A stretch of 16,235 bases of DNA from a bacterium (GTDB lineage: Bacteria; SAR324; NAC60-12). The number at the start of each line of letters is the position of its first letter. Positions within the stretch are counted from its first letter, which is position 1. Shown here one piece after another: positions 1 through 16,146 of the stretch. Below the pieces are notes generated by a model. It saw nothing but the letters and a program-made list of their open reading frames with translations. It had not been told where the DNA came from and did not search any database. A program made the position numbers and the translations under genes. The stretch covers positions 1-16,235 of the forward strand of contig CBDDTI010000653.1 of assembly GCA_965233585.1 (NCBI GenBank), read 5' to 3'.

Positions 1-1267
1 GAACTTCAGGATCAGAAGTTACTTGGTTGTAGTTGAAAATGATATTTCTAATAGGATTTTTATACTGATAGCAAATAAGAGGAGGTTCAAGATTCTCGAA
101 ATACTGAGGAATTTTAGAGGTGACTCTATGATCTCTGAAAATGTTGGAAATATTGAGCAAGTCCAAGCCTTGATTAACGAACTTAATTTTGATAAACTGT
201 GTTTTAGGAGGAAGTGTTGGTATGCGGGGAAAGAGTTTATTAAACGAAAAGGCCATAATCATTTTAAGTTTGAATCAATCTGAATGTCGTATACTTCTGC
301 GGTCAGCCTCATCCAGGATTGGTTTCAGTCGAGACACTGGAATAGAAGAGAGTGCATGTAAAAGCTCATGTCGACCGTTATTTTTCGCGATTCGCAAAAG
401 GTCATCCAAGGACCTATTCAGTCTTTGTTTTCTCCTAGAGAGACCATTGCGACGCACACCATGAGATCGACGCTTTCTGCGAACATCTGGTTTTAATGAG
501 AAGACGTTAATGTTTGAGCGTACGGATGATATATTCCCTTGTTGGTAGATCTGGTCATTAAGGCCAAGAGGATACGGTGTCTGTAGTCGCTTTATCCAGT
601 TGAGTTCGGCCGAAAGTCTGTGTTTTTTCATATCATTTTTAGAATCCCCAGGTTGTTTGGAAAGACTTTCAACTGGAGTTATAGTAACATTTTCTATGGA
701 ATGATTATATTTAATGAAGTGATCGTATAAGAAATTCTTGTATTTGCGTCTAGAAATGTTTCGGATTTTAAACGAATGACTGCGGAAGCGACCTTTCAGA
801 CTTTGAGATGTTTCCCCGACGTACTGAGCGCCACAACCCCTGGCTTCTCATGTAATAACGTATATCAAATTTGAACTATTTCAGTCAACATCTTTGTCGA
901 TTTGGATGCCGTATCTGTTGCCATTGATGGAGGATGTTATAGTTGACTTGCATGAGATATGGTGGCATGTTAAACATCTCCTAGCATTGCACATCGATAT
1001 CTTAGAAAACCTTCTGTTAATACGATTAGCAAGACGAAAGGACTTTGCAGTCCGACCTAAGTTAGAAACTGACTGAGGTTTGGAATTTGGGGAACCAAAG
1101 TGAAGGGGAGAAAGTGAAACTTTAGTAGTAGTAAACAGCTTTTTACCAGAAACGCCAGGAAGATGCAGTGAAGATACAGAAGGCAATCTAAGAGGAGTGA
1201 GTAAAATTCGAGGTGATCTATGTTTGCAATTCAATAAATTTGTAGCCATATTGAGGTTCCGGTACAT
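1..1267 (-). CDS. Partial (N-terminal) GIY-YIG/RT polyprotein with in-frame UGA (putative Sec) codons
   Basis: ATG at 1267. The frame continues through TGA at 881-883, 848-850 and 275-277. Reads DVD*NSSNLIYVIT*EARGCGAQYVGETSQSLKGRFRSH ... ELNWIKRLQTPYPLGLND, a PLE GIY-YIG domain. Confidence 0.8.
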
Positions 1268-1414: not shown

Positions 1415-1638
1415 AAGAGAAAAAGGAAGAGATCTGACTCAGTCCTATGACAAAAGCCCCTAAACCAACAGAAATGTCAAAAGGGCAAAGTGACAACACA
1501 TTACACGTAAGGCATAGATGATAAATATAATATAGCAAAAATATATATGGTGACATCCGAATAGGGCAGGCTATGCTCCGCCCGGCTGAAAGCGAGCTCA
1601 GGTCTGATGGCTGAAGGAGTCCCGACTAACAATCAGAG

Positions 1639-1701
1639 GGGACGAAGATCAGGACCCTGTCGCCTCTGAGGAGGTTTAGACAAGGCCCGTCATATAGTCC
1701 C
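1639..1701 (-). promoter_or_regulatory. SECIS element (eukaryotic type II), unit B
   Basis: Identical to the hairpin at 5424-5486. Confidence 0.85.
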
Positions 1702-1711
1702 AACCGCCTTG

Positions 1712-4700
1712 TTAGTCAGAGTGCAATGCTTTAGGAAAAGTCTGCACAAGGCTGTACAAGGGCCAAGCACGTTTAACTATTTTCGAACCCGACGAGATGA
1801 AATTCGGTGTGTCTTTGACCCTCCTTAGTTTGTAAACTAGATCACCGTAGAAGACCGGGTGAGAGATTCCTTTAAATACATATTCTTGGAACGAAATATC
1901 ACCAAATTTAGACAGAAGTTCGGAGTACGATCTAAAGAACTTTCCAAATGTTTTTCGAAGCTTGTGATATCTATAACCCTGTGTAAGCAGTTTTGAAGTA
2001 ATTTGGAGATTTTTAGAATGGAAATCCAAAACGCTAGTACAACATCTAGCAAATCTAACCAACTGCGAAATGTAAATACCGTAGGATGGGAGTCTTGGAA
2101 CGTCACCACTCAACCATGGGAAATTAACAATAGGAAATCCGAAGTCATCGCGTTTGTCGTAAACGCTGGTATGAATGTCACTGCCAATAACTTTAATATT
2201 TAAATCCAAGAAAGAAGTTTCTTTGTCCGAAGTGTTTGCTTTATTTAACTGAAGTTCTGCTGGATATATGTCGGGAATATATTTCTCAAATTCAGGGTTA
2301 TCGATGGTGAATATATCGTCAAGATATCGAGAGGTATCATTAAACATGTCTATGAGGTCATGACGTTTAGATTTCTGAAGGTCAGACATAAAGTCCCTCT
2401 CATAACAATATAAAAATAAGTCGGCTATAAGTGGAGCACAGTTAGTGCCCATAGGAATCCCTACTATTTGTTGATATACCATGCCATCAAATTGCACATA
2501 TATGTTTTCCATGAGGAAAGTAAAAGCTTCACATAACTCCGCGCAAGACCAACATCTATACGAGTCATATTTCTTGTTGCTAAAAAATCCTGCCTTAAGT
2601 GAAGTACAGAGGTAAGATTTTGACTCTCTGTTGAAACACCAGTTGACCAGAGACAACACTTTTGCTTTGATCAGATCATGTGGCAATGAGGTGTATAAAG
2701 TAGAAAAGTCGAAAGAAGATACTTGAGAACCCTGAAAGTTACGCAGTCGCAACTTTTCGATGACCTCGGAAGAGTTTTTAATGGACCAAAAATAATTGAC
2801 ATTACTATTGCTAAAAGCAGTTTCACTGTACTTCATAACATGATCTTTGACAGCTGTAAGAGCAGATGTAATATGCTTAGAAAGAATGGTAGTAGAGCAG
2901 TGACTTGAATTTGATATAAAACGCGATTTATAAGGACGTTTGTGTAATTTTGGCAACCAATAAAATGTAGGCAGTTCACATTTATCAATTTTGACATTGA
3001 TTTTGGTGAGAGTATTGATGTGATGCACAAGAAGTTGGTCTTTCGTCAACTGAGCAGGTACATATGTACTCGTAGAATTCAATTCCCCTTTCAAAACCTC
3101 CACGTAGTGTCGTTTTCAAATAATGATCACGTTATTCGCTGCTTTATCGGCAGGAGCAAAGACATATTTACGGTGTAATTTCTCCATTTTCTTTTTCAAT
3201 GACTTGACCGAACGACTGGGTGGCTGTTTGTACAAATGTGGATGTTTAGTAAAATTGTCTATTCTGATGTCAATGACGCGTAAAAATTCATTTTTCCAGT
3301 CGTTAAGGGCATGCACTCCGACGCCTTCCTTTTTAGACCAACGTTTACAATATGTCTGAAGTGCATCCTCGACAATATCCCGGCATTTAGTAAAATCAAT
3401 CCTGGATGGAAGTCTATATTTAGGCCCTTTCTTAAAGAGTGACTGTAATCCTTTGTCAGGAATACAAGTAAGGTCACCTGTGACAACATGTCCAGCAGGT
3501 GGATACAGAAACGGCGAGTCCGCACAAGATCATGATGGCTGAATGGAACTCAGAACATCAGGATCAGAAGTTACTTGGTTGTAGTTGAAAATGATATTTC
3601 TAATAGGATTTTTATACTGATAGCAAATAAGAGGAGGTTCAAGATTCTCGAAATACTGAGGAATTTTAGAGGTGACTCTATGATCTCTGAAAATGTTGGA
3701 AATATTGAGCAAGTCCAAGCCTTGATTAACGAACTTAATTTTGATAAACTGTGTTTTAGGAGGAAGTGTTGGTATGCGGGGAAAGAGTTTATTAAACGAA
3801 AAGGCCATAATCATTTTAAGTTTGAATCAATCTGAATGTCGTAAACTTCTGCGGTCAGCCTCATCCAGGATTGGTTTCAGTCGAGACACTGGAATAGAAG
3901 AGAGTGCATGTAAAAGCTCATGTCGACCGTTATTTTTCGCGATTCGCAAAAGGTCATCCAAGGACCTATTCAGTCTTTGTTTTCTCCTAGAGAGACCATT
4001 GCGACGCACACCATGAGATCGACGCTTTCTGCGAACATCTGGTTTTAATGAGAAGACGTTAATGTTTGAGCGAACGGATGATATATTCCCTTGTTGGTAG
4101 ATCTGGTCATTAAGGCCAAGAGGATACGGTGTCTGTAGTCGCTTTATCCAGTTGAGTTCGGCCGAAAGTCTGCGTTTTTTCATATCATTTTTAGAATCCC
4201 CAGGTTGTTTGGAAAGAATTTCAACTGGAGTTATAGTAACATTTTCTATGGAATGATTATATTTAATGAAGTGATCGTATAAGAAATTCTTGTATTTGCG
4301 TCTAGAATTGTTTCGGATTTTAAACGAATGACTGCGGAAGCGACCTTTCAGACTTTGAGATGTTTCGCCGACGTACTGAGCACCACAACCCCTGGCTTCT
4401 CATGTAATAACGTATATCAAATTTGAACTATTTCAGTCAACATCTTTGTCGATTTGGATGCCGTATCTGTTGCCATTGATGGAGGATGTTATAGTTGACT
4501 TGCATGAGATATGGTGGCATGTTAAACATCTCCTAGCATTGCACATGGATATCTTAGAAAACCTTCTGTTAATACGATTAGCAAGACGAAAGGACTTTGC
4601 AGTCCGACCTAAGTTAGAAACTGACTGAGGTTTGGAATTTGGGGAACCAAAGTGAAGGGGAGAAAGTGAAACTTTAGTAGTAGTAAACAGCTTTTTACCA

Positions 4701-4819
4701 GAAACGCCAGGAAGATGCAGTGAAGATACAGAAGGCAATCTAAGAGGAGTGAGTAAAATTCGAGGTGATCTATGTTTGCAATTCAATAAATTTGTAGCCA
4801 TATTGAGGTTCCGGTACAT
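1712..4819 (-). CDS. GIY-YIG-CxC-RT selenoprotein, ~1035 aa, with C-terminus frameshifted by a 53-bp deletion (ends at TAA; possibly defective)
   Basis: One frame with TGA at 4433, 4400, 3827, 3530 and 3116. RT motifs SFDFSTLYT, QIVGIPMGTNCAP and RYLDD are intact. After KIVKR it shifts to AWPLYSLVQTFPKALHSD. Confidence 0.75.
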
Positions 4820-5070
4820 GTTGGGAAAAGATTCCGTAGTATAAAGGAATCTATCACACAACTAAGTCAGAACTCGAATGAGATGAATAATGACACTTTA
4901 AACACCCGGACGCGGGGAACCTTGTTACAACGCTCCACACTGCAGCCGAGAATAAGTGTAGATATTAAGAGAAAAAGGAAGAGATCTGACTCAGTCCTAT
5001 GACAAAAGCCCCTACACCAACAGAAATGTCAAAAGGGCAAAGTGACAACACAAACAACGCCACAAAAAAG

Positions 5071-5197
5071 TTCGATTAAACAGCGGTTGCGGACCGACTT
5101 AGGACGGTCAGTCGGAGTAACTACAGCCACCCAACTGGTGTGGTTAACCGGTTTACGGGCCCACCTTCCCACTAACCGCAACAGCCGTTTAATCAAA
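5071..5197 (-). other. Structured 3' UTR RNA element (22-position closing stem, internal hairpins), unit C
   Basis: UUUGAUUAAACGGCUGUUGCGG pairs with CCGCAACCGCUGUUUAAUCGAA at 21 of 22 positions, including 2 G-U. Internal hairpin CCGACU/AGUCGG. Confidence 0.65.
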
Positions 5198-5423
5198 AGG
5201 ACACACGTTTAAAAATTTGTAAATAAACCTCCTTATATAGACAACAAACCAACAGCCACCCCAAGCGGAGAGGTCATAAAAATCGTTACACGTAAGGCAT
5301 AGATGATAAATATAATATAGCAAAAATATATATGGTGACATCCGAATAGGGCAGGCTATGCTCCGCCCGGCTGAAAGCGAGCTCAGGTCTGATGGCTGAA
5401 GGAGTCCCGACTAACAATCAGAG

Positions 5424-5486
5424 GGGACGAAGATCAGGACCCTGTCGCCTCTGAGGAGGTTTAGACAAGGCCCGTCATATAGTCCC
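5424..5486 (-). promoter_or_regulatory. SECIS element (eukaryotic type II), unit C
   Basis: Sense RNA: GGGAC-UAU-AUGAC-GGGCCUUGUC-U-AAA-CCUC-CUCA-GAGG-C-GACAGGGUCC-UGAU-CUUC-GUCCC. It has helix I (GGGAC/GUCCC), the AUGA/GA core, a 10-bp helix II with 2 G-U pairs, unpaired AAA, and an apical mini-stem CCUC/GAGG. Confidence 0.9.
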
Positions 5487-8400
5487 AACCGCCTTGTTAG
5501 TCAGAGTGCAATGCTTTAGGAAAAGTCTGCACAAGGCTGTACAAGGGCCAAGCACAAGACCTATAGTCGTCTCGATGATCAATGGGTCATACTGTCGTCG
5601 TCGAAGGCGTTTAACTATTTTCGAACCCGACGAGATGAAATTCGGTGTGTCTTTGACCCTCCTTAGTTTGTAAACTAGATCACCGTAGAAGACCGGGTGA
5701 GAGATTCCTTTAAATACATATTCTTGGAACGAAATATCACCAAATTTAGACAGAAGTTCGGAGTACGATCTAAAGAACTTTCCAAATGTTTTTCGAAGCT
5801 TGTGATATCTATAACCCTGTGTAAGCAGTTTTGAAGTAATTTGGAGATTTTTAGAATGGAAATCCAAAACGCTAGTACAACATCTAGCAAATCTAACCAA
5901 CTGCGAAATGTAAATACCGTAGGATGGGAGTCTTGGAACGTCACCACTCAACCATGGGAAATTAACAATAGGAAATCCGAAGTCATCGCGTTTGTCGTAA
6001 ACGCTGGTATGAATGTCACTGCCAATAACTTTAATATTTAAATCCAAGAAAGAAGTTTCTTTGTCCGAAGTGTTTGCTTTATTTAACTGAAGTTCTGCTG
6101 GATATATGTCGGGAATATATTTCTCAAATTCAGGGTTATCGATGGTGAATATATCGTCAAGATATCGAGAGGTATCATTAAACATGTCTATGAGGTCATG
6201 ACGTTTAGATTTCTGAAGGTCAGACATAAAGTCCCTCTCATAACAATATAAAAATAAGTCGGCTATAAGTGGAGCACAGTTAGTGCCCATAGGAATCCCT
6301 ACTATTTGTTGATATACCATGCCATCAAATTGCACATATATGTTTTCCATGAGGAAAGTAAAAGCTTCACATAACTCCGCGCAAGACCAACATCTATACG
6401 AGTCATATTTCTTGTTGCTAAAAAATCCTGCCTTAAGTGAAGTACAGAGGTAAGATTTTGACTCTCTGTTGAAACACCAGTTGACCAGAGACAACACTTT
6501 TGCTTTGATCAGATCATGTGGCAATGAGGTGTATAAAGTAGAAAAGTCGAAAGAAGATACTTGAGAACCCTGAAAGTTACGCAGTCGCAACTTTTCGATG
6601 ACCTCGGAAGAGTTTTTAATGGACCAAAAATAATTGACATTACTATTGCTAAAAGCAGTTTCACTGTACTTCATAACATGATCTTTGACAGCTGTAAGAG
6701 CAGATGTAATATGCTTAGAAAGAATGGTAGTAGAGCAGTGACTTGAATTTGATATAAAACGCGATTTATAAGGACGTTTGTGTAATTTTGGCAACCAATA
6801 AAATGTAGGCAGTTCACATTTATCAATTTTGACATTGATTTTGGTGAGAGTATTGATGTGATGCACAAGAAGTTGGTCTTTCGTCAACTGAGCAGGTACA
6901 TATGTACTCGTAGAATTCAATTCCCCTTTCAAAACCTCCACGTAGTGTCGTTTTCAAATAATGATCACGTTATTCGCTGCTTTATCGGCAGGAGCAAAGA
7001 CATATTTACGGTGTAATTTCTCCATTTTCTTTTTCAATGACTTGACCGAACGACTGGGTGGCTGTTTGTACAAATGTGGATGTTTAGTAAAATTGTCTAT
7101 TCTGATGTCAATGACGCGTAAAAATTCATTTTTCCAGTCGTTAAGGGCATGCACTCCGACGCCTTCCTTTTTAGACCAACGTTTACAATATGTCTGAAGT
7201 GCATCCTCGACAATATCCCGGCATTTAGTAAAATCAATCCTGGATGGAAGTCTATATTTAGGCCCTTTCTTAAAGAGTGACTGTAATCCTTTGTCAGGAA
7301 TACAAGTAAGGTCACCTGTGACAACATGTCCAGCAGGTGGATACAGAAACGGCGAGTCCGCACAAGATCATGATGGCTGAATGGAACTCAGAACATCAGG
7401 ATCAGAAGTTACTTGGTTGTAGTTGAAAATGATATTTCTAATAGGATTTTTATACTGATAGCAAATAAGAGGAGGTTCAAGATTCTCGAAATACTGAGGA
7501 ATTTTAGAGGTGACTCTATGATCTCTGAAAATGTTGGAAATATTGAGCAAGTCCAAGCCTTGATTAACGAACTTAATTTTGATAAACTGTGTTTTAGGAG
7601 GAAGTGTTGGTATGCGGGGAAAGAGTTTATTAAACGAAAAGGCCATAATCATTTTAAGTTTGAATCAATCTGAATGTCGTAAACTTCTGCGGTCAGCCTC
7701 ATCCAGGATTGGTTTCAGTCGAGACACTGGAATAGAAGAGAGTGCATGTAAAAGCTCATGTCGACCGTTATTTTTCGCGATTCGCAAAAGGTCATCCAAG
7801 GACCTATTCAGTCTTTGTTTTCTCCTAGAGAGACCATTGCGACGCACACCATGAGATCGACGCTTTCTGCGAACATCTGGTTTTAATGAGAAGACGTTAA
7901 TGTTTGAGCGAACGGATGATATATTCCCTTGTTGGTAGATCTGGTCATTAAGGCCAAGAGGATACGGTGTCTGTAGTCGCTTTATCCAGTTGAGTTCGGC
8001 CGAAAGTCTGCGTTTTTTCATATCATTTTTAGAATCCCCAGGTTGTTTGGAAAGAATTTCAACTGGAGTTATAGTAACATTTTCTATGGAATGATTATAT
8101 TTAATGAAGTGATCGTATAAGAAATTCTTGTATTTGCGTCTAGAATTGTTTCGGATTTTAAACGAATGACTGCGGAAGCGACCTTTCAGACTTTGAGATG
8201 TTTCGCCGACGTACTGAGCACCACAACCCCTGGCTTCTCATGTAATAACGTATATCAAATTTGAACTATTTCAGTCAACATCTTTGTCGATTTGGATGCC
8301 GTATCTGTTGCCATTGATGGAGGATGTTATAGTTGACTTGCATGAGATATGGTGGCATGTTAAACATCTCCTAGCATTGCACATGGATATCTTAGAAAAC

Positions 8401-8657
8401 CTTCTGTTAATACGATTAGCAAGACGAAAGGACTTTGCAGTCCGACCTAAGTTAGAAACTGACTGAGGTTTGGAATTTGGGGAACCAAAGTGAAGGGGAG
8501 AAAGTGAAACTTTAGTAGTAGTAAACAGCTTTTTACCAGAAACGCCAGGAAGATGCAGTGAAGATACAGAAGGCAATCTAAGAGGAGTGAGTAAAATTCG
8601 AGGTGATCTATGTTTGCAATTCAATAAATTTGTAGCCATATTGAGGTTCCGGTACAT
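5475..8657 (-). CDS. Full-length Naiad PLE polyprotein, ~1060 aa: N-terminal Cys-rich/GIY-YIG endonuclease, CxC linker, reverse transcriptase; 5 putative selenocysteines
   Basis: First ATG at 8657 (open from 8699; a second ATG at 8639 has a better Kozak context). Track ORFs 8271-8699, 7665-8021, 7368-7652, 6954-7154 and 5475-6941 are in one frame, separated only by TGA at 8271, 8238, 7665, 7368 and 6954. Motifs: CxxxxCxxC, LIY...YVGET, *SCADSPFLYPPAGHVVTGDL, DKAANN, YWLPKLHK, SRFI, FDFSTLYT, GIPMG, YLDD, FLDL, YDKRDDF. Confidence 0.9.
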
Positions 8658-9182: not shown

Positions 9183-9245
9183 GGGACGAAGATCAGGACC
9201 CTGTCGCCTCTGAGGAGGTTTAGACAAGGCCCGTCATATAGTCCC
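9183..9245 (-). promoter_or_regulatory. SECIS element (eukaryotic type II), unit D
   Basis: Identical to 5424-5486. Confidence 0.9.
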
Positions 9246-12200
9246 AACCGCCTTGTTAGTCAGAGTGCAATGCTTTAGGAAAAGTCTGCACAAGGCTGTA
9301 CAAGGGCCAAGCACAAGACCTATAGTCGTCTCGATGATCAATGGGTCATACTGTCGTCGTCGAAGGCGTTTAACTATTTTCGAACCCGACGAGATGAAAT
9401 TCGGTGTGTCTTTGACCCTCCTTAGTTTGTAAACTAGATCACCGTAGAAGACCGGGTGAGAGATTCCTTTAAATACATATTCTTGGAACGAAATATCACC
9501 AAATTTAGACAGAAGTTCGGAGTACGATCTAAAGAACTTTCCAAATGTTTTTCGAAGCTTGTGATATCTATAACCCTGTGTAAGCAGTTTTGAAGTAATT
9601 TGGAGATTTTTAGAATGGAAATCCAAAACGCTAGTACAACATCTAGCAAATCTAACCAACTGCGAAATGTAAATACCGTAGGATGGGAGTCTTGGAACGT
9701 CACCACTCAACCATGGGAAATTAACAATAGGAAATCCGAAGTCATCGCGTTTGTCGTAAACGCTGGTATGAATGTCACTGCCAATAACTTTAATATTTAA
9801 ATCCAAGAAAGAAGTTTCTTTGTCCGAAGTGTTTGCTTTATTTAACTGAAGTTCTGCTGGATATATGTCGGGAATATATTTCTCAAATTCAGGGTTATCG
9901 ATGGTGAATATATCGTCAAGATATCGAGAGGTATCATTAAACATGTCTATGAGGTCATGACGTTTAGATTTCTGAAGGTCAGACATAAAGTCCCTCTCAT
10001 AACAATATAAAAATAAGTCGGCTATAAGTGGAGCACAGTTAGTGCCCATAGGAATCCCTACTATTTGTTGATATACCATGCCATCAAATTGCACATATAT
10101 GTTTTCCATGAGGAAAGTAAAAGCTTCACATAACTCCGCGCAAGACCAACATCTATACGAGTCATATTTCTTGTTGCTAAAAAATCCTGCCTTAAGTGAA
10201 GTACAGAGGTAAGATTTTGACTCTCTGTTGAAACACCAGTTGACCAGAGACAACACTTTTGCTTTGATCAGATCATGTGGCAATGAGGTGTATAAAGTAG
10301 AAAAGTCGAAAGAAGATACTTGAGAACCCTGAAAGTTACGCAGTCGCAACTTTTCGATGACCTCGGAAGAGTTTTTAATGGACCAAAAATAATTGACATT
10401 ACTATTGCTAAAAGCAGTTTCACTGTACTTCATAACATGATCTTTGACAGCTGTAAGAGCAGATGTAATATGCTTAGAAAGAATGGTAGTAGAGCAGTGA
10501 CTTGAATTTGATATAAAACGCGATTTATAAGGACGTTTGTGTAATTTTGGCAACCAATAAAATGTAGGCAGTTCACATTTATCAATTTTGACATTGATTT
10601 TGGTGAGAGTATTGATGTGATGCACAAGAAGTTGGTCTTTCGTCAACTGAGCAGGTACATATGTACTCGTAGAATTCAATTCCCCTTTCAAAACCTCCAC
10701 GTAGTGTCGTTTTCAAATAATGATCACGTTATTCGCTGCTTTATCGGCAGGAGCAAAGACATATTTACGGTGTAATTTCTCCATTTTCTTTTTCAATGAC
10801 TTGACCGAACGACTGGGTGGCTGTTTGTACAAATGTGGATGTTTAGTAAAATTGTCTATTCTGATGTCAATGACGCGTAAAAATTCATTTTTCCAGTCGT
10901 TAAGGGCATGCACTCCGACGCCTTCCTTTTTAGACCAACGTTTACAATATGTCTGAAGTGCATCCTCGACAATATCCCGGCATTTAGTAAAATCAATCCT
11001 GGATGGAAGTCTATATTTAGGCCCTTTCTTAAAGAGTGACTGTAATCCTTTGTCAGGAATACAAGTAAGGTCACCTGTGACAACATGTCCAGCAGGTGGA
11101 TACAGAAACGGCGAGTCCGCACAAGATCATGATGGCTGAATGGAACTCAGAACATCAGGATCAGAAGTTACTTGGTTGTAGTTGAAAATGATATTTCTAA
11201 TAGGATTTTTATACTGATAGCAAATAAGAGGAGGTTCAAGATTCTCGAAATACTGAGGAATTTTAGAGGTGACTCTATGATCTCTGAAAATGTTGGAAAT
11301 ATTGAGCAAGTCCAAGCCTTGATTAACGAACTTAATTTTGATAAACTGTGTTTTAGGAGGAAGTGTTGGTATGCGGGGAAAGAGTTTATTAAACGAAAAG
11401 GCCATAATCATTTTAAGTTTGAATCAATCTGAATGTCGTAAACTTCTGCGGTCAGCCTCATCCAGGATTGGTTTCAGTCGAGACACTGGAATAGAAGAGA
11501 GTGCATGTAAAAGCTCATGTCGACCGTTATTTTTCGCGATTCGCAAAAGGTCATCCAAGGACCTATTCAGTCTTTGTTTTCTCCTAGAGAGACCATTGCG
11601 ACGCACACCATGAGATCGACGCTTTCTGCGAACATCTGGTTTTAATGAGAAGACGTTAATGTTTGAGCGAACGGATGATATATTCCCTTGTTGGTAGATC
11701 TGGTCATTAAGGCCAAGAGGATACGGTGTCTGTAGTCGCTTTATCCAGTTGAGTTCGGCCGAAAGTCTGCGTTTTTTCATATCATTTTTAGAATCCCCAG
11801 GTTGTTTGGAAAGAATTTCAACTGGAGTTATAGTAACATTTTCTATGGAATGATTATATTTAATGAAGTGATCGTATAAGAAATTCTTGTATTTGCGTCT
11901 AGAATTGTTTCGGATTTTAAACGAATGACTGCGGAAGCGACCTTTCAGACTTTGAGATGTTTCGCCGACGTACTGAGCACCACAACCCCTGGCTTCTCAT
12001 GTAATAACGTATATCAAATTTGAACTATTTCAGTCAACATCTTTGTCGATTTGGATGCCGTATCTGTTGCCATTGATGGAGGATGTTATAGTTGACTTGC
12101 ATGAGATATGGTGGCATGTTAAACATCTCCTAGCATTGCACATGGATATCTTAGAAAACCTTCTGTTAATACGATTAGCAAGACGAAAGGACTTTGCAGT

Positions 12201-12416
12201 CCGACCTAAGTTAGAAACTGACTGAGGTTTGGAATTTGGGGAACCAAAGTGAAGGGGAGAAAGTGAAACTTTAGTAGTAGTAAACAGCTTTTTACCAGAA
12301 ACGCCAGGAAGATGCAGTGAAGATACAGAAGGCAATCTAAGAGGAGTGAGTAAAATTCGAGGTGATCTATGTTTGCAATTCAATAAATTTGTAGCCATAT
12401 TGAGGTTCCGGTACAT
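9234..12416 (-). CDS. Full-length Naiad PLE GIY-YIG-CxC-RT selenoprotein, ~1060 aa
   Basis: Same translation as unit C. In-frame TGA at 12030, 11997, 11424, 11127 and 10713; terminal TGA at 9234-9236. Confidence 0.9.
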
Positions 12417-12667
12417 GTTGGGAAAAGATTCCGTAGTATAAAGGAATCTATCACACAACTAAGTCAGAACTCGAATGAGATGAATAATGACACTTTAAAC
12501 ACCCGGACGCGGGGAACCTTGTTACAACGCTCCACACTGCAGCCGAGAATAAGTGTAGATATTAAGAGAAAAAGGAAGAGATCTGACTCAGTCCTATGAC
12601 AAAAGCCCCTACACCAACAGAAATGTCAAAAGGGCAAAGTGACAACACAAACAACGCCACAAAAAAG

Positions 12668-12794
12668 TTCGATTAAACAGCGGTTGCGGACCGACTTAGG
12701 ACGGTCAGTCGGAGTAACTACAGCCACCCAACTGGTGTGGTTAACCGGTTTACGGGCCCACCTTCCCACTAACCGCAACAGCCGTTTAATCAAA
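12668..12794 (-). other. Structured 3' UTR RNA element, unit E
   Basis: Identical to 5071-5197. Confidence 0.65.
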
Positions 12795-13020
12795 AGGACA
12801 CACATTTAAAAATTTGTAAATAAACCTCCTTATATAGACAACAAACCAACAGCCACCCCAAGCGGAGAGGTCATAAAAATCGTTACACGTAAGGCATAGA
12901 TGATAAATATAATATAGCAAAAATATATATGGTGACATCCGAATAGGGCAGGCTATGCTCCGCCCGGCTGAAAGCGAGCTCAGGTCTGATGGCTGAAGGA
13001 GTCCCGACTAACAATCAGAG

Positions 13021-13083
13021 GGGACGAAGATCAGGACCCTGTCGCCTCTGAGGAGGTTTAGACAAGGCCCGTCATATAGTCCC
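13021..13083 (-). promoter_or_regulatory. SECIS element (eukaryotic type II), unit E
   Basis: Identical to 5424-5486. Confidence 0.87.
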
Positions 13084-16000
13084 AACCGCCTTGTTAGTCA
13101 GAGTGCAATGCTTTAGGAAAAGTCTGCACAAGGCTGTACAAGGGCCAAGCACAAGACCTATAGTCGTCTCGATGATCAATGGGTCATACTGTCGTCGTCG
13201 AAGGCGTTTAACTATTTTCGAACCCGACGAGATGAAATTCGGTGTGTCTTTGACCCTCCTTAGTTTGTAAACTAGATCACCGTAGAAGACCGGGTGAGAG
13301 ATTCCTTTAAATACATATTCTTGGAACGAAATATCACCAAATTTAGACAGAAGTTCGGAGTACGATCTAAAGAACTTTCCAAATGTTTTTCGAAGCTTGT
13401 GATATCTATAACCCTGTGTAAGCAGTTTTGAAGTAATTTGGAGATTTTTAGAATGGAAATCCAAAACGCTAGTACAACATCTAGCAAATCTAACCAACTG
13501 CGAAATGTAAATACCGTAGGATGGGAGTCTTGGAACGTCACCACTCAACCATGGGAAATTAACAATAGGAAATCCGAAGTCATCGCGTTTGTCGTAAACG
13601 CTGGTATGAATGTCACTGCCAATAACTTTAATATTTAAATCCAAGAAAGAAGTTTCTTTGTCCGAAGTGTTTGCTTTATTTAACTGAAGTTCTGCTGGAT
13701 ATATGTCGGGAATATATTTCTCAAATTCAGGGTTATCGATGGTGAATATATCGTCAAGATATCGAGAGGTATCATTAAACATGTCTATGAGGTCATGACG
13801 TTTAGATTTCTGAAGGTCAGACATAAAGTCCCTCTCATAACAATATAAAAATAAGTCGGCTATAAGTGGAGCACAGTTAGTGCCCATAGGAATCCCTACT
13901 ATTTGTTGATATACCATGCCATCAAATTGCACATATATGTTTTCCATGAGGAAAGTAAAAGCTTCACATAACTCCGCGCAAGACCAACATCTATACGAGT
14001 CATATTTCTTGTTGCTAAAAAATCCTGCCTTAAGTGAAGTACAGAGGTAAGATTTTGACTCTCTGTTGAAACACCAGTTGACCAGAGACAACACTTTTGC
14101 TTTGATCAGATCATGTGGCAATGAGGTGTATAAAGTAGAAAAGTCGAAAGAAGATACTTGAGAACCCTGAAAGTTACGCAGTCGCAACTTTTCGATGACC
14201 TCGGAAGAGTTTTTAATGGACCAAAAATAATTGACATTACTATTGCTAAAAGCAGTTTCACTGTACTTCATAACATGATCTTTGACAGCTGTAAGAGCAG
14301 ATGTAATATGCTTAGAAAGAATGGTAGTAGAGCAGTGACTTGAATTTGATATAAAACGCGATTTATAAGGACGTTTGTGTAATTTTGGCAACCAATAAAA
14401 TGTAGGCAGTTCACATTTATCAATTTTGACATTGATTTTGGTGAGAGTATTGATGTGATGCACAAGAAGTTGGTCTTTCGTCAACTGAGCAGGTACATAT
14501 GTACTCGTAGAATTCAATTCCCCTTTCAAAACCTCCACCGACTGGGTGGCTGTTTGTACAAATGTGGATGTTTAGTAAAATTGTCTATTCTTATATAAAT
14601 GATGCGTAAAAATTCATTTTTCCAGTCGTTAAGGACATGCACTCCGACGCCCTTCCTTTTTGGACCAACGTTTACAGTATGTCTGAAGTGCAACCTCGAC
14701 AATATCCCTGCATTTAGTAAAATCAATCCTGGATGGAAGTCTATATTTAGGCCCTTTCTTAACGAGTGACCGTAATCCTTTGCCAGGAATACAAGTAAGG
14801 TCACCTGTGACAACATGTCCAGCAGGTGGATACAGAAACGGCGAGTCCGCACAAGATCATGATGGCTGAATGGAACTCAGAACTTCAGGATCAGAAGTTA
14901 CTTGGTTGTAGTTGAAAATGATATTTCTAATAGGATTTTTATACTGATAGCAAATAAGAGGAGGTTCAAGATTCTCGAAATACTGAGGAATTTTAGAGGT
15001 GACTCTATGATCTCTGAAAATGTTGGAAATATTGAGCAAGTCCAAGCCTTGATTAACGAACTTAATTTTGATAAACTGTGTTTTAGGAGGAAGTGTTGGT
15101 ATGCGGGGAAAGAGTTTATTAAACGAAAAGGCCATAATCATTTTAAGTTTGAATCAATCTGAATGTCGTATACTTCTGCGGTCAGCCTCATCCAGGATTG
15201 GTTTCAGTCGAGACACTGGAATAGAAGAGAGTGCATGTAAAAGCTCATGTCGACCGTTATTTTTCGCGATTCGCAAAAGGTCATCCAAGGACCTATTCAG
15301 TCTTTGTTTTCTCCTAGAGAGACCATTGCGACGCACACCATGAGATCGACGCTTTCTGCGAACATCTGGTTTTAATGAGAAGACGTTAATGTTTGAGCGT
15401 ACGGATGATATATTCCCTTGTTGGTAGATCTGGTCATTAAGGCCGAGAGGATACGGTGTCTGTAGTCGCTTTATCCAGTTGAGTTCGGCCGAAAGTCTGC
15501 GTTTTTTCATATCATTTTTAGAATCCCCAGGTTGTTTGGAAAGACTTTCAACTGGAGTTATAGTAACATTTTCTATGGAATGATTATATTTAATGAAGTG
15601 ATCGTATAAGAAATTCTTGTATTTGCGTCTAGAAATGTTTCGGATTTTAAACGAATGACTGCGGAAGCGACCTTTCAGACTTTGAGATGTTTCCCCGACG
15701 TACTGAGCGCCACAACCCCTGGCTTCTCATGTAATAACGTATATCAAATTTGAACTATTTCAGTCAACATCTTTGTCGATTTGGATGCCGTATCTGTTGC
15801 CATTGATGGAGGATGTTATAGTTGACTTGCATGAGATATGGTGGCATGTTAAACATCTCCTAGCATTGCACATCGATATCTTAGAAAACCTTCTGTTAAT
15901 ACGATTAGCAAGACGAAAGGACTTTGCAGTCCGACCTAAGTTAGAAACTGACTGAGGTTTGGAATTTGGGGAACCAAAGTGAAGGGGAGAAAGTGAAACT

Positions 16001-16146
16001 TTAGTAGTAGTAAACAGCTTTTTACCAGAAACGCCAGGAAGATGCAGTGAAGATACAGAAGGCAATCTAAGAGGAGTGAGTAAAATTCGAGGTGATCTAT
16101 GTTTGCAATTCAATAAATTTGTAGCCATATTGAGGTTCCGGTACAT
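13072..16146 (-). pseudogene. Disrupted Naiad polyprotein
   Basis: An extra C at ~14651 shifts the frame into a TAA. The 109-bp deletion removes the KYVFAPADKAANNVIII*KRHY segment. TGAs at 15760, 15727, 15154 and 14857 are retained, and the RT core (13072-14538) is intact. Confidence 0.8.

Follow-up and report, generated by a model that had tools for sequence, protein, structure and literature searches.

The minus strand of a contig assigned to a SAR324 bacterium (assembly GCA_965233585.1, contig CBDDTI010000653.1) carries a long reading frame that is broken five times by TGA. Are these codons read as selenocysteine (Sec), and to what kind of element, from what kind of organism, does the frame belong? 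We analysed the contig over its whole 16,235 nucleotides, referred to here as the window. The reading that we prefer, with a probability of about 0.88, is that the window holds an array of Naiad-clade Penelope-like elements (PLEs) from a marine animal, misbinned with bacterial sequence, and that the five UGAs are recoded to Sec by one SECIS.

A single reading frame interrupted only by UGA

Translation of positions 5475–8657 yields a minus-strand frame of 1060 codons (8657 to 5478) followed by a stop, with TGA as its sole interruption. Neither TAA nor TAG occurs within these 1060 codons and the frame does not shift, and the remaining two frames over the same interval contain 38 and 105 stops, with TAA, TAG and TGA all represented. 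The first-pass annotation had described one frame of about 1060 residues broken by TGA alone at codons 129, 140, 331, 430 and 568, and retranslation confirms this description together with all five peptide contexts quoted around the TGAs. The read-through ORF is terminated by a sixth TGA, at 5475–5477 on the minus strand. The frame and its in-frame UGA codons are as follows:

5475–8657, minus strand: ORF of unit C, intact when read through; GIY-YIG endonuclease at the N terminus, then linker and reverse transcriptase; 1060 codons and the terminator TGA
8637–8639, minus strand: Met7, conserved and probable start codon; full-length database copies align from residue 6–7
8271–8273, minus strand: UGA codon 129; the Cys before the GIY motif; Cys in 71/75 aligned homologues
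8238–8240, minus strand: UGA codon 140; the first Cys of CCHH, within the GIY-YIG core; Cys in 75/79
7665–7667, minus strand: UGA codon 331; a variable, non-Cys column in the endonuclease-reverse transcriptase linker; opens a predicted helix, 331–345
7368–7370, minus strand: UGA codon 430; in place of the first CxC Cys (U-S-C); Cys in 83/88 aligned homologues
6954–6956, minus strand: UGA codon 568; the Cys 8 residues past the DKA motif; Cys in 97/109 aligned homologues

Codons had originally been counted from the ATG at 8657. This ATG does open the 1060-codon frame but is not conserved, since positions 8655–8657 read AAT in a second array, carried by a different contig of the assembly (C448). 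Met7 is probably the real start.

Domain organisation and predicted fold

Read through, the ORF would encode an N-terminal GIY-YIG endonuclease (EN) and a telomerase-like reverse transcriptase (RT) in one chain. The layout is marked by these features:

8355–8381, minus strand: CX4CxxC zinc-finger-like motif (C93, C98, C101), with ordinary Cys codons throughout
7938–8402, minus strand: GIY-YIG endonuclease domain, about residues 86–240, with LIY at 134–136 and YVGET at 149–153; homologues carry PF01541
7803–7871, minus strand: KR-rich block, residues 263–285 (RRKRR...RRKQRLNR), in a low-confidence linker
6978–6986, minus strand: Naiad-diagnostic DKA motif, residues 558–560, within PADKAANN (556–563)
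5658–6809, minus strand: reverse transcriptase core, about residues 617–1000, with YLDD at 6153–6164

EN lies upstream of RT in the one frame, LIY and YVGET preceding YLDD (residues 832–835), and homologues carry PF00078 as well as PF01541. The two Cys of the CCHH motif are U140 and C145, between the GIY and YIG strands, with the two His unplaced. The CxC motif (U430-S-C432) and the GxKF/Y motif (GPKY, 465–468) both lie between EN and RT. Motif A and YxDD are 128 residues apart, compared with about 98 in two canonical PLE ORFs of the assembly (C562 and C61), a comparison of spacing alone in which the IFD-like insertion is not aligned to TERT. The KR-rich block is a candidate nuclear localisation signal.

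Pfam searches of the read-through protein returned no family at E ≤ 0.1, and the domain calls therefore rest on motifs, homologues and fold. An AF2 model of the read-through protein (pLDDT 86.7, pTM 0.72) is a single confident model over residues 86–1052, and all 15 of its best Foldseek matches in the PDB are telomerase RTs.

Passages of Craig et al. 2021 (PMC8557442) characterize Naiads by an N-terminal GIY-YIG domain, the CX2-5CxxC, CCHH, CxC, GxKF/Y and DKA motifs, a KR block, an IFD-like insertion between RT3(A) and RT4(B), and no canonical hammerhead. The first-pass placement of four UGAs at the Cys before GIY, the first CCHH Cys, the CxC motif and the Cys after DKxxNN agrees with the definitions given there. 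No hammerhead ribozyme was found in the window, where an Rfam scan at E ≤ 1 gave four SECIS_1 matches only. On its motifs, we assign the element to the Naiad clade of PLEs.

UGA codons at conserved cysteine columns

The homologues bear out the proposal that four of the five UGAs stand at Cys positions. Cys makes up 88–95% of aligned homologues at columns 129, 140, 430 and 568, and the non-Cys remainder is mostly Trp from gene calls that translate TGA as W. At the DNA level, 85 related loci have TGA, TGT or TGC at these four columns, save for a single alignment gap and a TAA in one decayed copy. The same loci contain 125 in-frame TGAs, 112 of which sit on Cys-or-U columns of the window protein (30 of its 1060 columns), and recurring TGA columns are shared by elements just 42–71% identical. 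The TGAs are retained in the other copies and families that were checked. L036, one of the related loci, has as many as six TGAs in frame, and the second Cys of the CX2-5CxxC finger is TGA in seven. About 40 UGA-bearing relatives from metagenomes group in a single clade, in which Cys and Sec have been exchanged repeatedly; within it, in a tree built without the published Naiad sequences, the window family and L026 form a separate, fully supported branch. Public protein sets bear the same signature: 42 of 120 listed protein clusters end one residue short of column 331, 430 or 568, and others have Trp there.

Between the window ORF and that of C448, 159 of 3183 nt differ; dS is 0.183, dN 0.019 and dN/dS 0.10. 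By segment, dN/dS is 0.02 for codons 129–331, 0.08 for 332–568 and 0.10 for 569–1060. Purifying selection persists across every UGA.

The Sec codons may be real but have no special role, with Cys and Sec swapping near-neutrally under efficient decoding and new UGAs, such as codon 331, being tolerated. We regard this as a serious prospect, a little short of even odds. It contests a functional interpretation, in which the enzyme is selenium-tuned or chemically improved, and does not contest decoding. The RT tree requires at least 10 Cys/Sec changes at column 430, and minima of 5 at 568, 3 at 129 and 2 at 140. Column 430 is mixed within the family, at about 90% identity, with C in 21 clusters, W (TGA) in 16 and the protein end in 12; Sec331 faces Leu, Tyr, Arg and other residues in relatives; and Naiad_Scon is described in a passage of PMC8557442 as having one UGA at a weakly constrained site. 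Free exchange fits less well with columns 129, 140 and 568, which are TGA in most clade members with few reversals, or with TGA331, which is kept between families of only 57–64% identity. The Sec residues of spider Naiads, judged in the same source to be independent in origin and lying at overlapping Cys positions, also hint at an advantage. The frequent Cys/Sec swaps themselves are accommodated about as well by near-neutral exchange as by a selenium-regulatory role.

Codon 331 stands at a column where no homologue has Cys, and its UGA persisted while the two families diverged to roughly 57–64% protein identity. A tentative account, on balance doubtful, is 'nonsense capture', in which a new UGA at a non-Cys site, arising in an mRNA already equipped with an efficient SECIS, was read as Sec, was kept, and reverted to Arg (CGA) in one branch. 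If this were true then, given that the tree calls for 20 or more exchanges of Cys and Sec, these elements would be a natural system of Sec sites born and lost, and their very numerous 5'-truncated copies, each ending in an intact SECIS, would scatter SECIS elements through the host genome as raw material for new host selenoproteins.

The SECIS element and the terminator

The recoding signal of unit C overlaps the end of the ORF:

5424–5486, minus strand: SECIS of unit C; Rfam SECIS_1, 42.8 bits (cut-off 35), E 5.8e-6; its AUGA core includes the terminator UGA at 5475–5477

A eukaryotic SECIS_1 above the Rfam gathering score is present in each unit that has an ORF end (four of four), on the coding strand and overlapping the stop. 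The unit C element scores 67 bits with a purpose-built model, R1. An alignment of the SECIS from 14 family members shows compensatory changes in 18 of 19 predicted pairs, and no variation at the UGA, the apical A's or the 3' GA. The Sec UGAs lie 1468–2785 nt upstream of the SECIS start, and the terminator UGA lies inside it. One stem-loop, starting at the ORF end, would recode five in-frame UGAs to selenocysteine, and translation would stop at the sixth, which belongs to the AUGA core of the SECIS. Craig et al. 2021 (PMC8557442) cite a rule of position under which a UGA so near the SECIS should escape recoding.

SECIS elements also track the UGA-bearing relatives. The purpose-built model, whose training set took in 13 of its 26 matching loci, gives 26 matches at E<0.01 among the 85 loci, all on the coding strand just past the ORF and all inside the UGA-bearing clade, with none in loci outside it. 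The matches in UGA-bearing L055 and L057 are only weak, and this model finds no SECIS in UGA-bearing L044, L048, L051 and L076 despite their 3' flank. Rfam in E-value mode gives six ORF-end SECIS matches in 15 UGA loci, and one weak match, inside the ORF, in 16 Cys-only loci. In gathering mode Rfam reports no SECIS in 20 UGA-bearing and 20 Cys-only loci; the fast filters miss these SECIS elements, and those of relatives score 27–32 bits, below the Rfam cut-off.

These data bear on whether UGA might instead specify a standard amino acid, through a variant code (Trp or Cys) or near-cognate read-through (Cys, Trp or Arg). Public gene callers did obtain long ORFs in relatives with TGA as W, and UGA as Cys is compatible with the Cys columns. 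Trp, however, is ill-suited to columns so dominated by Cys, and the ORF already contains 25 ordinary Cys codons (TGT/TGC), with UGA confined to a few fixed columns and accompanied by a canonical, covarying SECIS. A sense TGA at the terminator would carry the frame 66 codons through the SECIS, and most relatives stop on TAA or TAG just ahead of it. Three canonical PLE ORFs elsewhere in the assembly (C339, C562 and C61), with C-terminal EN and DKG, have no in-frame TGA. We consider decoding as a standard amino acid very improbable. A variant code with TGA as Trp or Cys was rejected on these grounds.

A tandem array of animal origin

The window is a head-to-tail array with a unit size of 3552–3838 nt. 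Its parts, besides unit C, are:

1–1267, minus strand: unit A, partial; codons 1–422 with three TGAs; ends at the contig edge
1501–4819, minus strand: unit B; five TGAs; 52 nt deleted close to the 3' end of the ORF and 233 nt from the spacer; SECIS at 1639–1701
4820–5474, minus strand: 655-nt spacer between ORFs; SECIS and 3' UTR, element 3' end at about unit position 3690–3698, and the leader of the next unit
9234–12416, minus strand: unit D, second intact ORF; a 100% identical copy; SECIS at 9183–9245
12417–16146, minus strand: unit E; ORF broken by a 109-nt deletion, codon 568 lost; SECIS at 13021–13083

Copies within the array are 98.4–100% identical, and the frame is intact in only two of the four complete units. 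Codons 129, 140, 331, 430 and 568 occur in the window 5, 5, 5, 4 and 3 times, respectively. The first-pass annotation held that the TGAs are the same in all copies and in both haplotypes. The first part stands wherever the position is present, the codon always being TGA, except that one unit has lost codon 568 to its deletion. The second is unfounded: haplotypes are not visible in the window, and the only counterpart known is the second array on C448, which is 95% identical, keeps all six TGAs and includes units beginning at positions 126 and 291.

Read depth in sequencing run X1 climbs about 390-fold from the 5' end to the 3' end of the element, and the runs of two organisms contain a huge population of 5'-truncated copies, as is typical of an active retroelement. 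None of the 40 best-supported read variants, beyond which there are 369 more, hits a TGA codon. That the TGAs are nonsense in dead copies of a satellite-like array making no full-length protein is scarcely credible and was rejected: the copies within the array are too alike to be independent and two of the four units have frame-breaking deletions, but that reading is contradicted by the dN/dS of 0.10 over the whole frame between arrays 5% apart and by the recurrence of TGA columns in divergent elements, and it sits poorly with the lack of TAA or TAG, the strong SECIS covariation, the confident single-chain fold and the truncated copy population.

The contig is animal DNA misbinned into a bacterial MAG. 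Gene models of Pinctada imbricata contain fragments 44–79% identical, which hints at a bivalve host. A search for relatives among viral contigs found none.

The selenoprotein reading and its significance

The selenoprotein reading of the ORF is well supported. The proposal that UGA, read as Sec, joins the EN-RT frame draws its support from the Cys columns, the SECIS and the kept TGAs. Sec insertion itself we infer from the anatomy of the element, SECIS covariation, Cys/UGA exchange and selection. With UGA decoded as Sec, full-length EN-RT would therefore depend on selenium supply and on processive recoding, and five serial UGAs would give a low full-length yield unless recoding is efficient.

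With the approximately 40 UGA-bearing relatives, Sec-Naiads become one large clade and a useful comparative set for the origin of Sec codons. There are also practical consequences. Public protein sets split such elements or translate their TGA as Trp, and bacterial MAGs used as species representatives contain animal repeat contigs.

Comparison with known elements

The kind of element described here is already known. As the first-pass annotation had stated, selenoprotein-encoding Naiads are on record, with three or four UGAs, from two clams and two spiders; selenoprotein-encoding transposable elements come from this one paper and its four families (Craig et al. 2021, PMC8557442), and a full-text literature search found no later report. 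The passages of that paper considered here contain no experimental demonstration of Sec insertion for any transposable element. They give a Naiad body of 3.4–4.4 kb, partial tandem (pLTR) insertions and strong 5' truncation. The additions made by the present element are its Sec count, its Sec sites, the stop in the SECIS core and the clade.

We compared the clam elements Naiad_Mmer (Mercenaria mercenaria) and Naiad_Scon (Sinonovacula constricta) by eye on their printed N-terminal parts, taking the CxC and DKA regions from the text of the paper (PMC8557442). All share the N-terminal GIY-YIG and RT arrangement, DKA, CxC and a single SECIS directly at the ORF end. They would have three Sec sites in common, each encoded by UGA: the Cys that precedes GIY (DVDU), the CCHH motif's first Cys (V[IL]TU) and the Cys that follows DKA by 8 residues. 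The window element has five UGAs, compared with 3 and 4 in Naiad_Mmer and Naiad_Scon, and so raises the Sec count to five per protein. Its fourth Sec would replace the first CxC Cys, and its fifth, residue 331, would occupy a site that is never Cys in relatives; in the printed sequences this column is Phe in Naiad_Mmer and Leu in Naiad_Scon. The CxC motif and a non-Cys site thus join the list of Sec positions. A UGA adjoining the SECIS was likewise proposed as the stop of Naiad_Mmer, whereas in the window element the AUGA core of the SECIS itself supplies the terminator UGA, making the stop codon part of that core. N-terminal peptides of the family are absent from the supplement of PMC8557442, searched over the first ~400 residues of each sequence.

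The Stegodyphus elements Naiad_Sdum and Naiad_Smim also have a multi-Sec EN-RT and a 3' SECIS, with Sec replacing the Cys ahead of GIY and the one that follows DKA. They place Sec in the CX2-5CxxC finger, where the window element has Cys throughout, and the IFD-like insertion is described in PMC8557442 as absent from spider Naiads.

Bivalve forms of selenoprotein P (Baclaocos et al. 2019, as cited in PMC8557442) resemble the window element in their many UGAs, processive decoding, 3' UTR SECIS and selenium-rich hosts. Selenoprotein P is a host selenium-transport protein and is not mobile, and the window element has a single SECIS for sites 1.47–2.79 kb upstream. Selenoprotein P uses two SECIS elements.

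With canonical EN+ PLEs (Penelope/Poseidon, Neptune and Nematis), the element has in common a telomerase-like RT, a GIY-YIG domain with Zn-finger-like motifs, tandem/pLTR insertions and 5' truncation. Canonical EN+ PLEs have a C-terminal endonuclease, DKG and hammerhead ribozymes, and the window element differs from them in all three respects.

Reading frame and array organization

The reading frame of unit C comprises 1060 codons (window positions 5475-8657, minus strand), and its only in-frame stops are TGA, at codons 129, 140, 331, 430 and 568, as the first-pass annotation had claimed. Neither TAA nor TAG occurs among the 1060 codons translated, and the frame ends at a sixth TGA (5475-5477). 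The remaining two frames of the same interval contain 38 and 105 stops, with TAA, TAG and TGA all represented. Units of 3552-3838 nt follow one another head to tail along the window:

8657-5475, minus strand: intact ORF of unit C
12416-9234, minus strand: second intact ORF
1501-4819, minus strand: unit broken close to the end of its ORF by a 52-nt deletion (ORF nt 3051-3102)
12417-16146, minus strand: unit broken by a 109-nt deletion (ORF nt 1608-1716) that removes codon 568
contig end, minus strand: partial unit truncated by the contig end

Deletions thus break two of the four complete units. The inter-unit spacers vary too, with deletions of 75 and 233 nt. The TGAs had been described as the same in all copies and both haplotypes; the first part holds, with TGA wherever the position is present, and the second falls away, as the window gives no haplotype information. 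Because the first ATG (8655-8657) reads AAT in the second array of the element, on contig C448, while Met7 (8637-8639) is conserved and alignments of database copies begin at residue 6-7, Met7 is probably the true start. Every residue number given here would then shift by 6.

Protein architecture and predicted fold

Inspection of the read-through protein recovers the Naiad motifs defined in Craig et al. 2021 (PMC8557442), in the following order:

residues 93-101: CX4CxxC
LIY 134 and YVGET 149: GIY-YIG endonuclease (EN) core, with two Cys-type positions inside
residues 263-285: KR-rich block
residues 430-432: CxC
residue 465: GPKY
residue 558: DKA
YLDD 832: reverse transcriptase (RT) core

AlphaFold2, supplied with 112 aligned homologues, returned one confident model (mean pLDDT 86.7, pTM 0.72) in which pLDDT falls below 50 solely at residues 1-85 and 1053-1060. 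Its best 15 structural matches in the PDB are all telomerase RTs (15/15), as would be expected for a Penelope-like element (PLE). An Rfam scan of the window found no hammerhead ribozyme. Canonical PLEs are also present in the source assembly (C339:16479-17732, C562:3660-4853, C61 and C115); in these, RT precedes GIY-YIG, the open frames reach 1006 aa and in-frame TGAs are absent. They carry DKG, whereas the element studied here carries DKA, and in C562 and C61 the spacing from motif A to motif C is ~30 aa shorter.

Conservation of the UGA columns

We surveyed the UGA columns in 111 database homologues, counting aligned residues only. Cys occupies columns 129, 140, 430 and 568 in 71/75, 75/79, 83/88 and 97/109 sequences, with W in most others, which upholds the earlier assignment of four UGAs to Cys positions. 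Homologues with W at these columns also read W through the terminator and SECIS. Sibling gene calls stop exactly at UGA columns, at residues 330, 429 and 567 in 13, 12 and 17 of the 120 clusters listed and in 11, 15 and 5 of 59 cluster members. Together these patterns show that W at the UGA columns stands for TGA. The public protein sets (P0002-P0009, P0113-P0291) contain two wrong forms of the family: long translations from TGA = Trp calls, with W at every selenocysteine (Sec) site and running through the SECIS, and fragments terminating exactly at columns 331, 430 and 568.

At the DNA level, the codon at columns 129, 140, 430 and 568 is TGA, TGT or TGC across 85 related loci. Only two loci depart from this: the decayed copy L091, with one TAA, and L102, where the alignment has a gap. 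TGA predominates at the four columns among relatives above ~42% identity, and every relative below 40% has TGT or TGC. Of 125 in-frame TGAs in 49 loci, several of them near-duplicates and so partly non-independent, 112 fall on the 30 of 1060 columns that are Cys or Sec in the protein. Other copies had been flagged as a place where the TGAs might be lost; C448 keeps all of them, and the related loci, apart from the two exceptions above, have TGA, TGT or TGC at the Cys columns. The ORFs of the two arrays differ at 159/3183 nt (dS 0.183, dN 0.019, ratio 0.10), and dN/dS by segment is 0.36 for codons 1-128, 0.02 for 129-331, 0.08 for 332-568 and 0.10 for 569-1060. These low values downstream of the UGAs indicate that the sequence past each one evolves as protein.

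A quick maximum-likelihood tree was built from residues 575-1000, a region without any UGA column, with 71 rows after 16/85 loci below 80% column coverage were dropped. Every row with TGA at any of the five columns falls in one 42-row clade (SH-aLRT 99), in which six rows have no TGA at the five columns within the part covered. The present element, C448 and locus L026 form a subclade with support of 100. Minimum Cys/Sec changes on the tree are 3, 2 and 5 at columns 129, 140 and 568; column 430 switches frequently, requiring 10 or more.

At column 430, where the first Cys of CxC lies, 22 related loci carry TGA; within the family, at ~90% identity, the column is polymorphic (21 clusters with C, 16 with W, 12 with a stop). 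Cys is absent from column 331 in all homologues and relatives examined, and in more distant relatives the position is taken by Leu, Tyr, Phe, Lys and other residues. TGA331 is retained in both arrays, and dozens of copies at 73-99% identity show a stop or W. The P0009 protein family (57-64% identity) keeps it as well: P0009 and P0248 show W, and P0247 stops at residue 330. L026 (71% identical) has CGA (Arg), one step from TGA. In the AlphaFold2 model, residue 331 opens a predicted helix (331-345; local pLDDT ~85-93). Further in-frame TGAs occur in L036 (593-3718), L038, L045, L046, L049, L051 and L052. In seven loci such a TGA falls on column 98, where the CX4CxxC finger has its second Cys; L036 and L061 carry one adjoining Cys614; and L036 totals six.

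SECIS element and terminator

Rfam SECIS_1 matches every unit on the coding strand at 42.8 bits (cut-off 35), beginning 9 nt before the stop. An alignment of the element with 13 related loci gives a consensus of 19 pairs, 18 with compensatory changes, and invariant UGA, apical A's and 3' GA. Its 4-bp apical mini-helix makes it form-2-like by eye; the four published Naiad SECIS were graded type I with SECISearch3 in PMC8557442. Two common variants in X1, a public sequencing run rich in the element, lie in the SECIS: 5463 A>G in the apical loop, matching the C448 state, and 5442 C>T, which turns a helix II G-U pair into A-U.

A covariance model of the family SECIS gave 26 matches at E<0.01 among the 85 loci, all immediately downstream of the ORF on the coding strand and all within the UGA-bearing clade, and none in Cys-only loci; 13 are training loci and 7 others look like training near-copies with identical scores, leaving ~6 independent. 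Across the whole source assembly its matches are confined to the eight units of the two arrays. In Rfam E-value mode, 15 UGA-bearing loci gave six sub-threshold SECIS_1 matches at ORF ends (27-32 bits), and 16 Cys-only loci gave one, inside an ORF (22.5 bits).

In most relatives the stop is TAG or TAA, placed 9 nt ahead of the ATGA of the SECIS. The present element and L026 have GGG there, so the frame extends three codons and ends at the UGA of the AUGA core. Work cited in PMC8557442 shows that recoding does not occur at a UGA this near the SECIS, and a similar SECIS-adjacent stop is proposed in that paper for Naiad_Mmer.

Genomic setting

The window spans all of contig C653, which belongs to an assembly filed as a prokaryote genome (12.0 Mb, 747 contigs; 92.5% complete, 2.1% contaminated). 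We conclude that the contig is animal DNA placed in a bacterial MAG by a binning error. All contigs have 30-50% G+C, so composition would not separate foreign ones, and marker-based contamination scores are blind to animal retroelement contigs. The assembly also contains the C448 array (95% identical) and, on C487, a piece of the element. Another ~30 contigs show weaker matches to GIY-YIG or RT, and several of these are canonical PLEs with RT before EN; PLE-type matches span ~35 contigs overall. Near-identical sequence occurs in 20 public runs from 7 studies, covering two organisms and marine plankton and sediment metagenomes. In X1, 25,393 contig pieces map to the element, and summed depth rises from ~1,200 at the 5' end to ~479,000 in the SECIS-holding bin, a profile that marks a very abundant retroelement with 5'-truncated copies. 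That bin (window 5414-5527) stands at ~2x its neighbours (479,000 vs ~250,000). Relatives were likewise recovered from other bacterial 'genomes': L021-L025 lie on contigs of species-representative genomes titled as a SUP05 isolate assembly, a Flavobacteriales MAG, a PVC-group MAG and a Bathymodiolus symbiont MAG, probably the same sort of host carry-over.

Functional implications and comparison with known Naiads

The element mRNA, bearing a single SECIS, would recruit the host Sec machinery, and EN-RT would be made only if ribosomes read through all five UGAs, which lie 1.47-2.79 kb upstream of that SECIS. Failure at the first would leave a 128-residue N-terminal peptide (122 from Met7) ending before the GIY-YIG core. 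Output of full-length protein, and with it retrotransposition, should accordingly hinge on selenium supply and processive recoding. The Sec sites may serve as a regulatory device, or may confer a chemical advantage where the Cys is metal-binding or redox-active. They may also reflect near-neutral exchange in a selenium-rich host, which the frequent swaps favour for column 430; long retention at 129, 140, 568 and 331, however, argues for constraint.

Selenoprotein-encoding Naiads are an already published kind (PMC8557442). A full-text literature search found no later report of such elements, and the PMC8557442 supplement, in its searchable part, does not contain the present family. In that paper, the clam families have Sec in place of three Cys residues, namely the one before GIY, the first in CCHH and the one 8 aa downstream of DKA, and Naiad_Scon has one extra Sec at a weakly constrained RT site. 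The present element joins this published kind with some new features: it has three Sec sites in common with the clam families and adds two, at 430 and 331.
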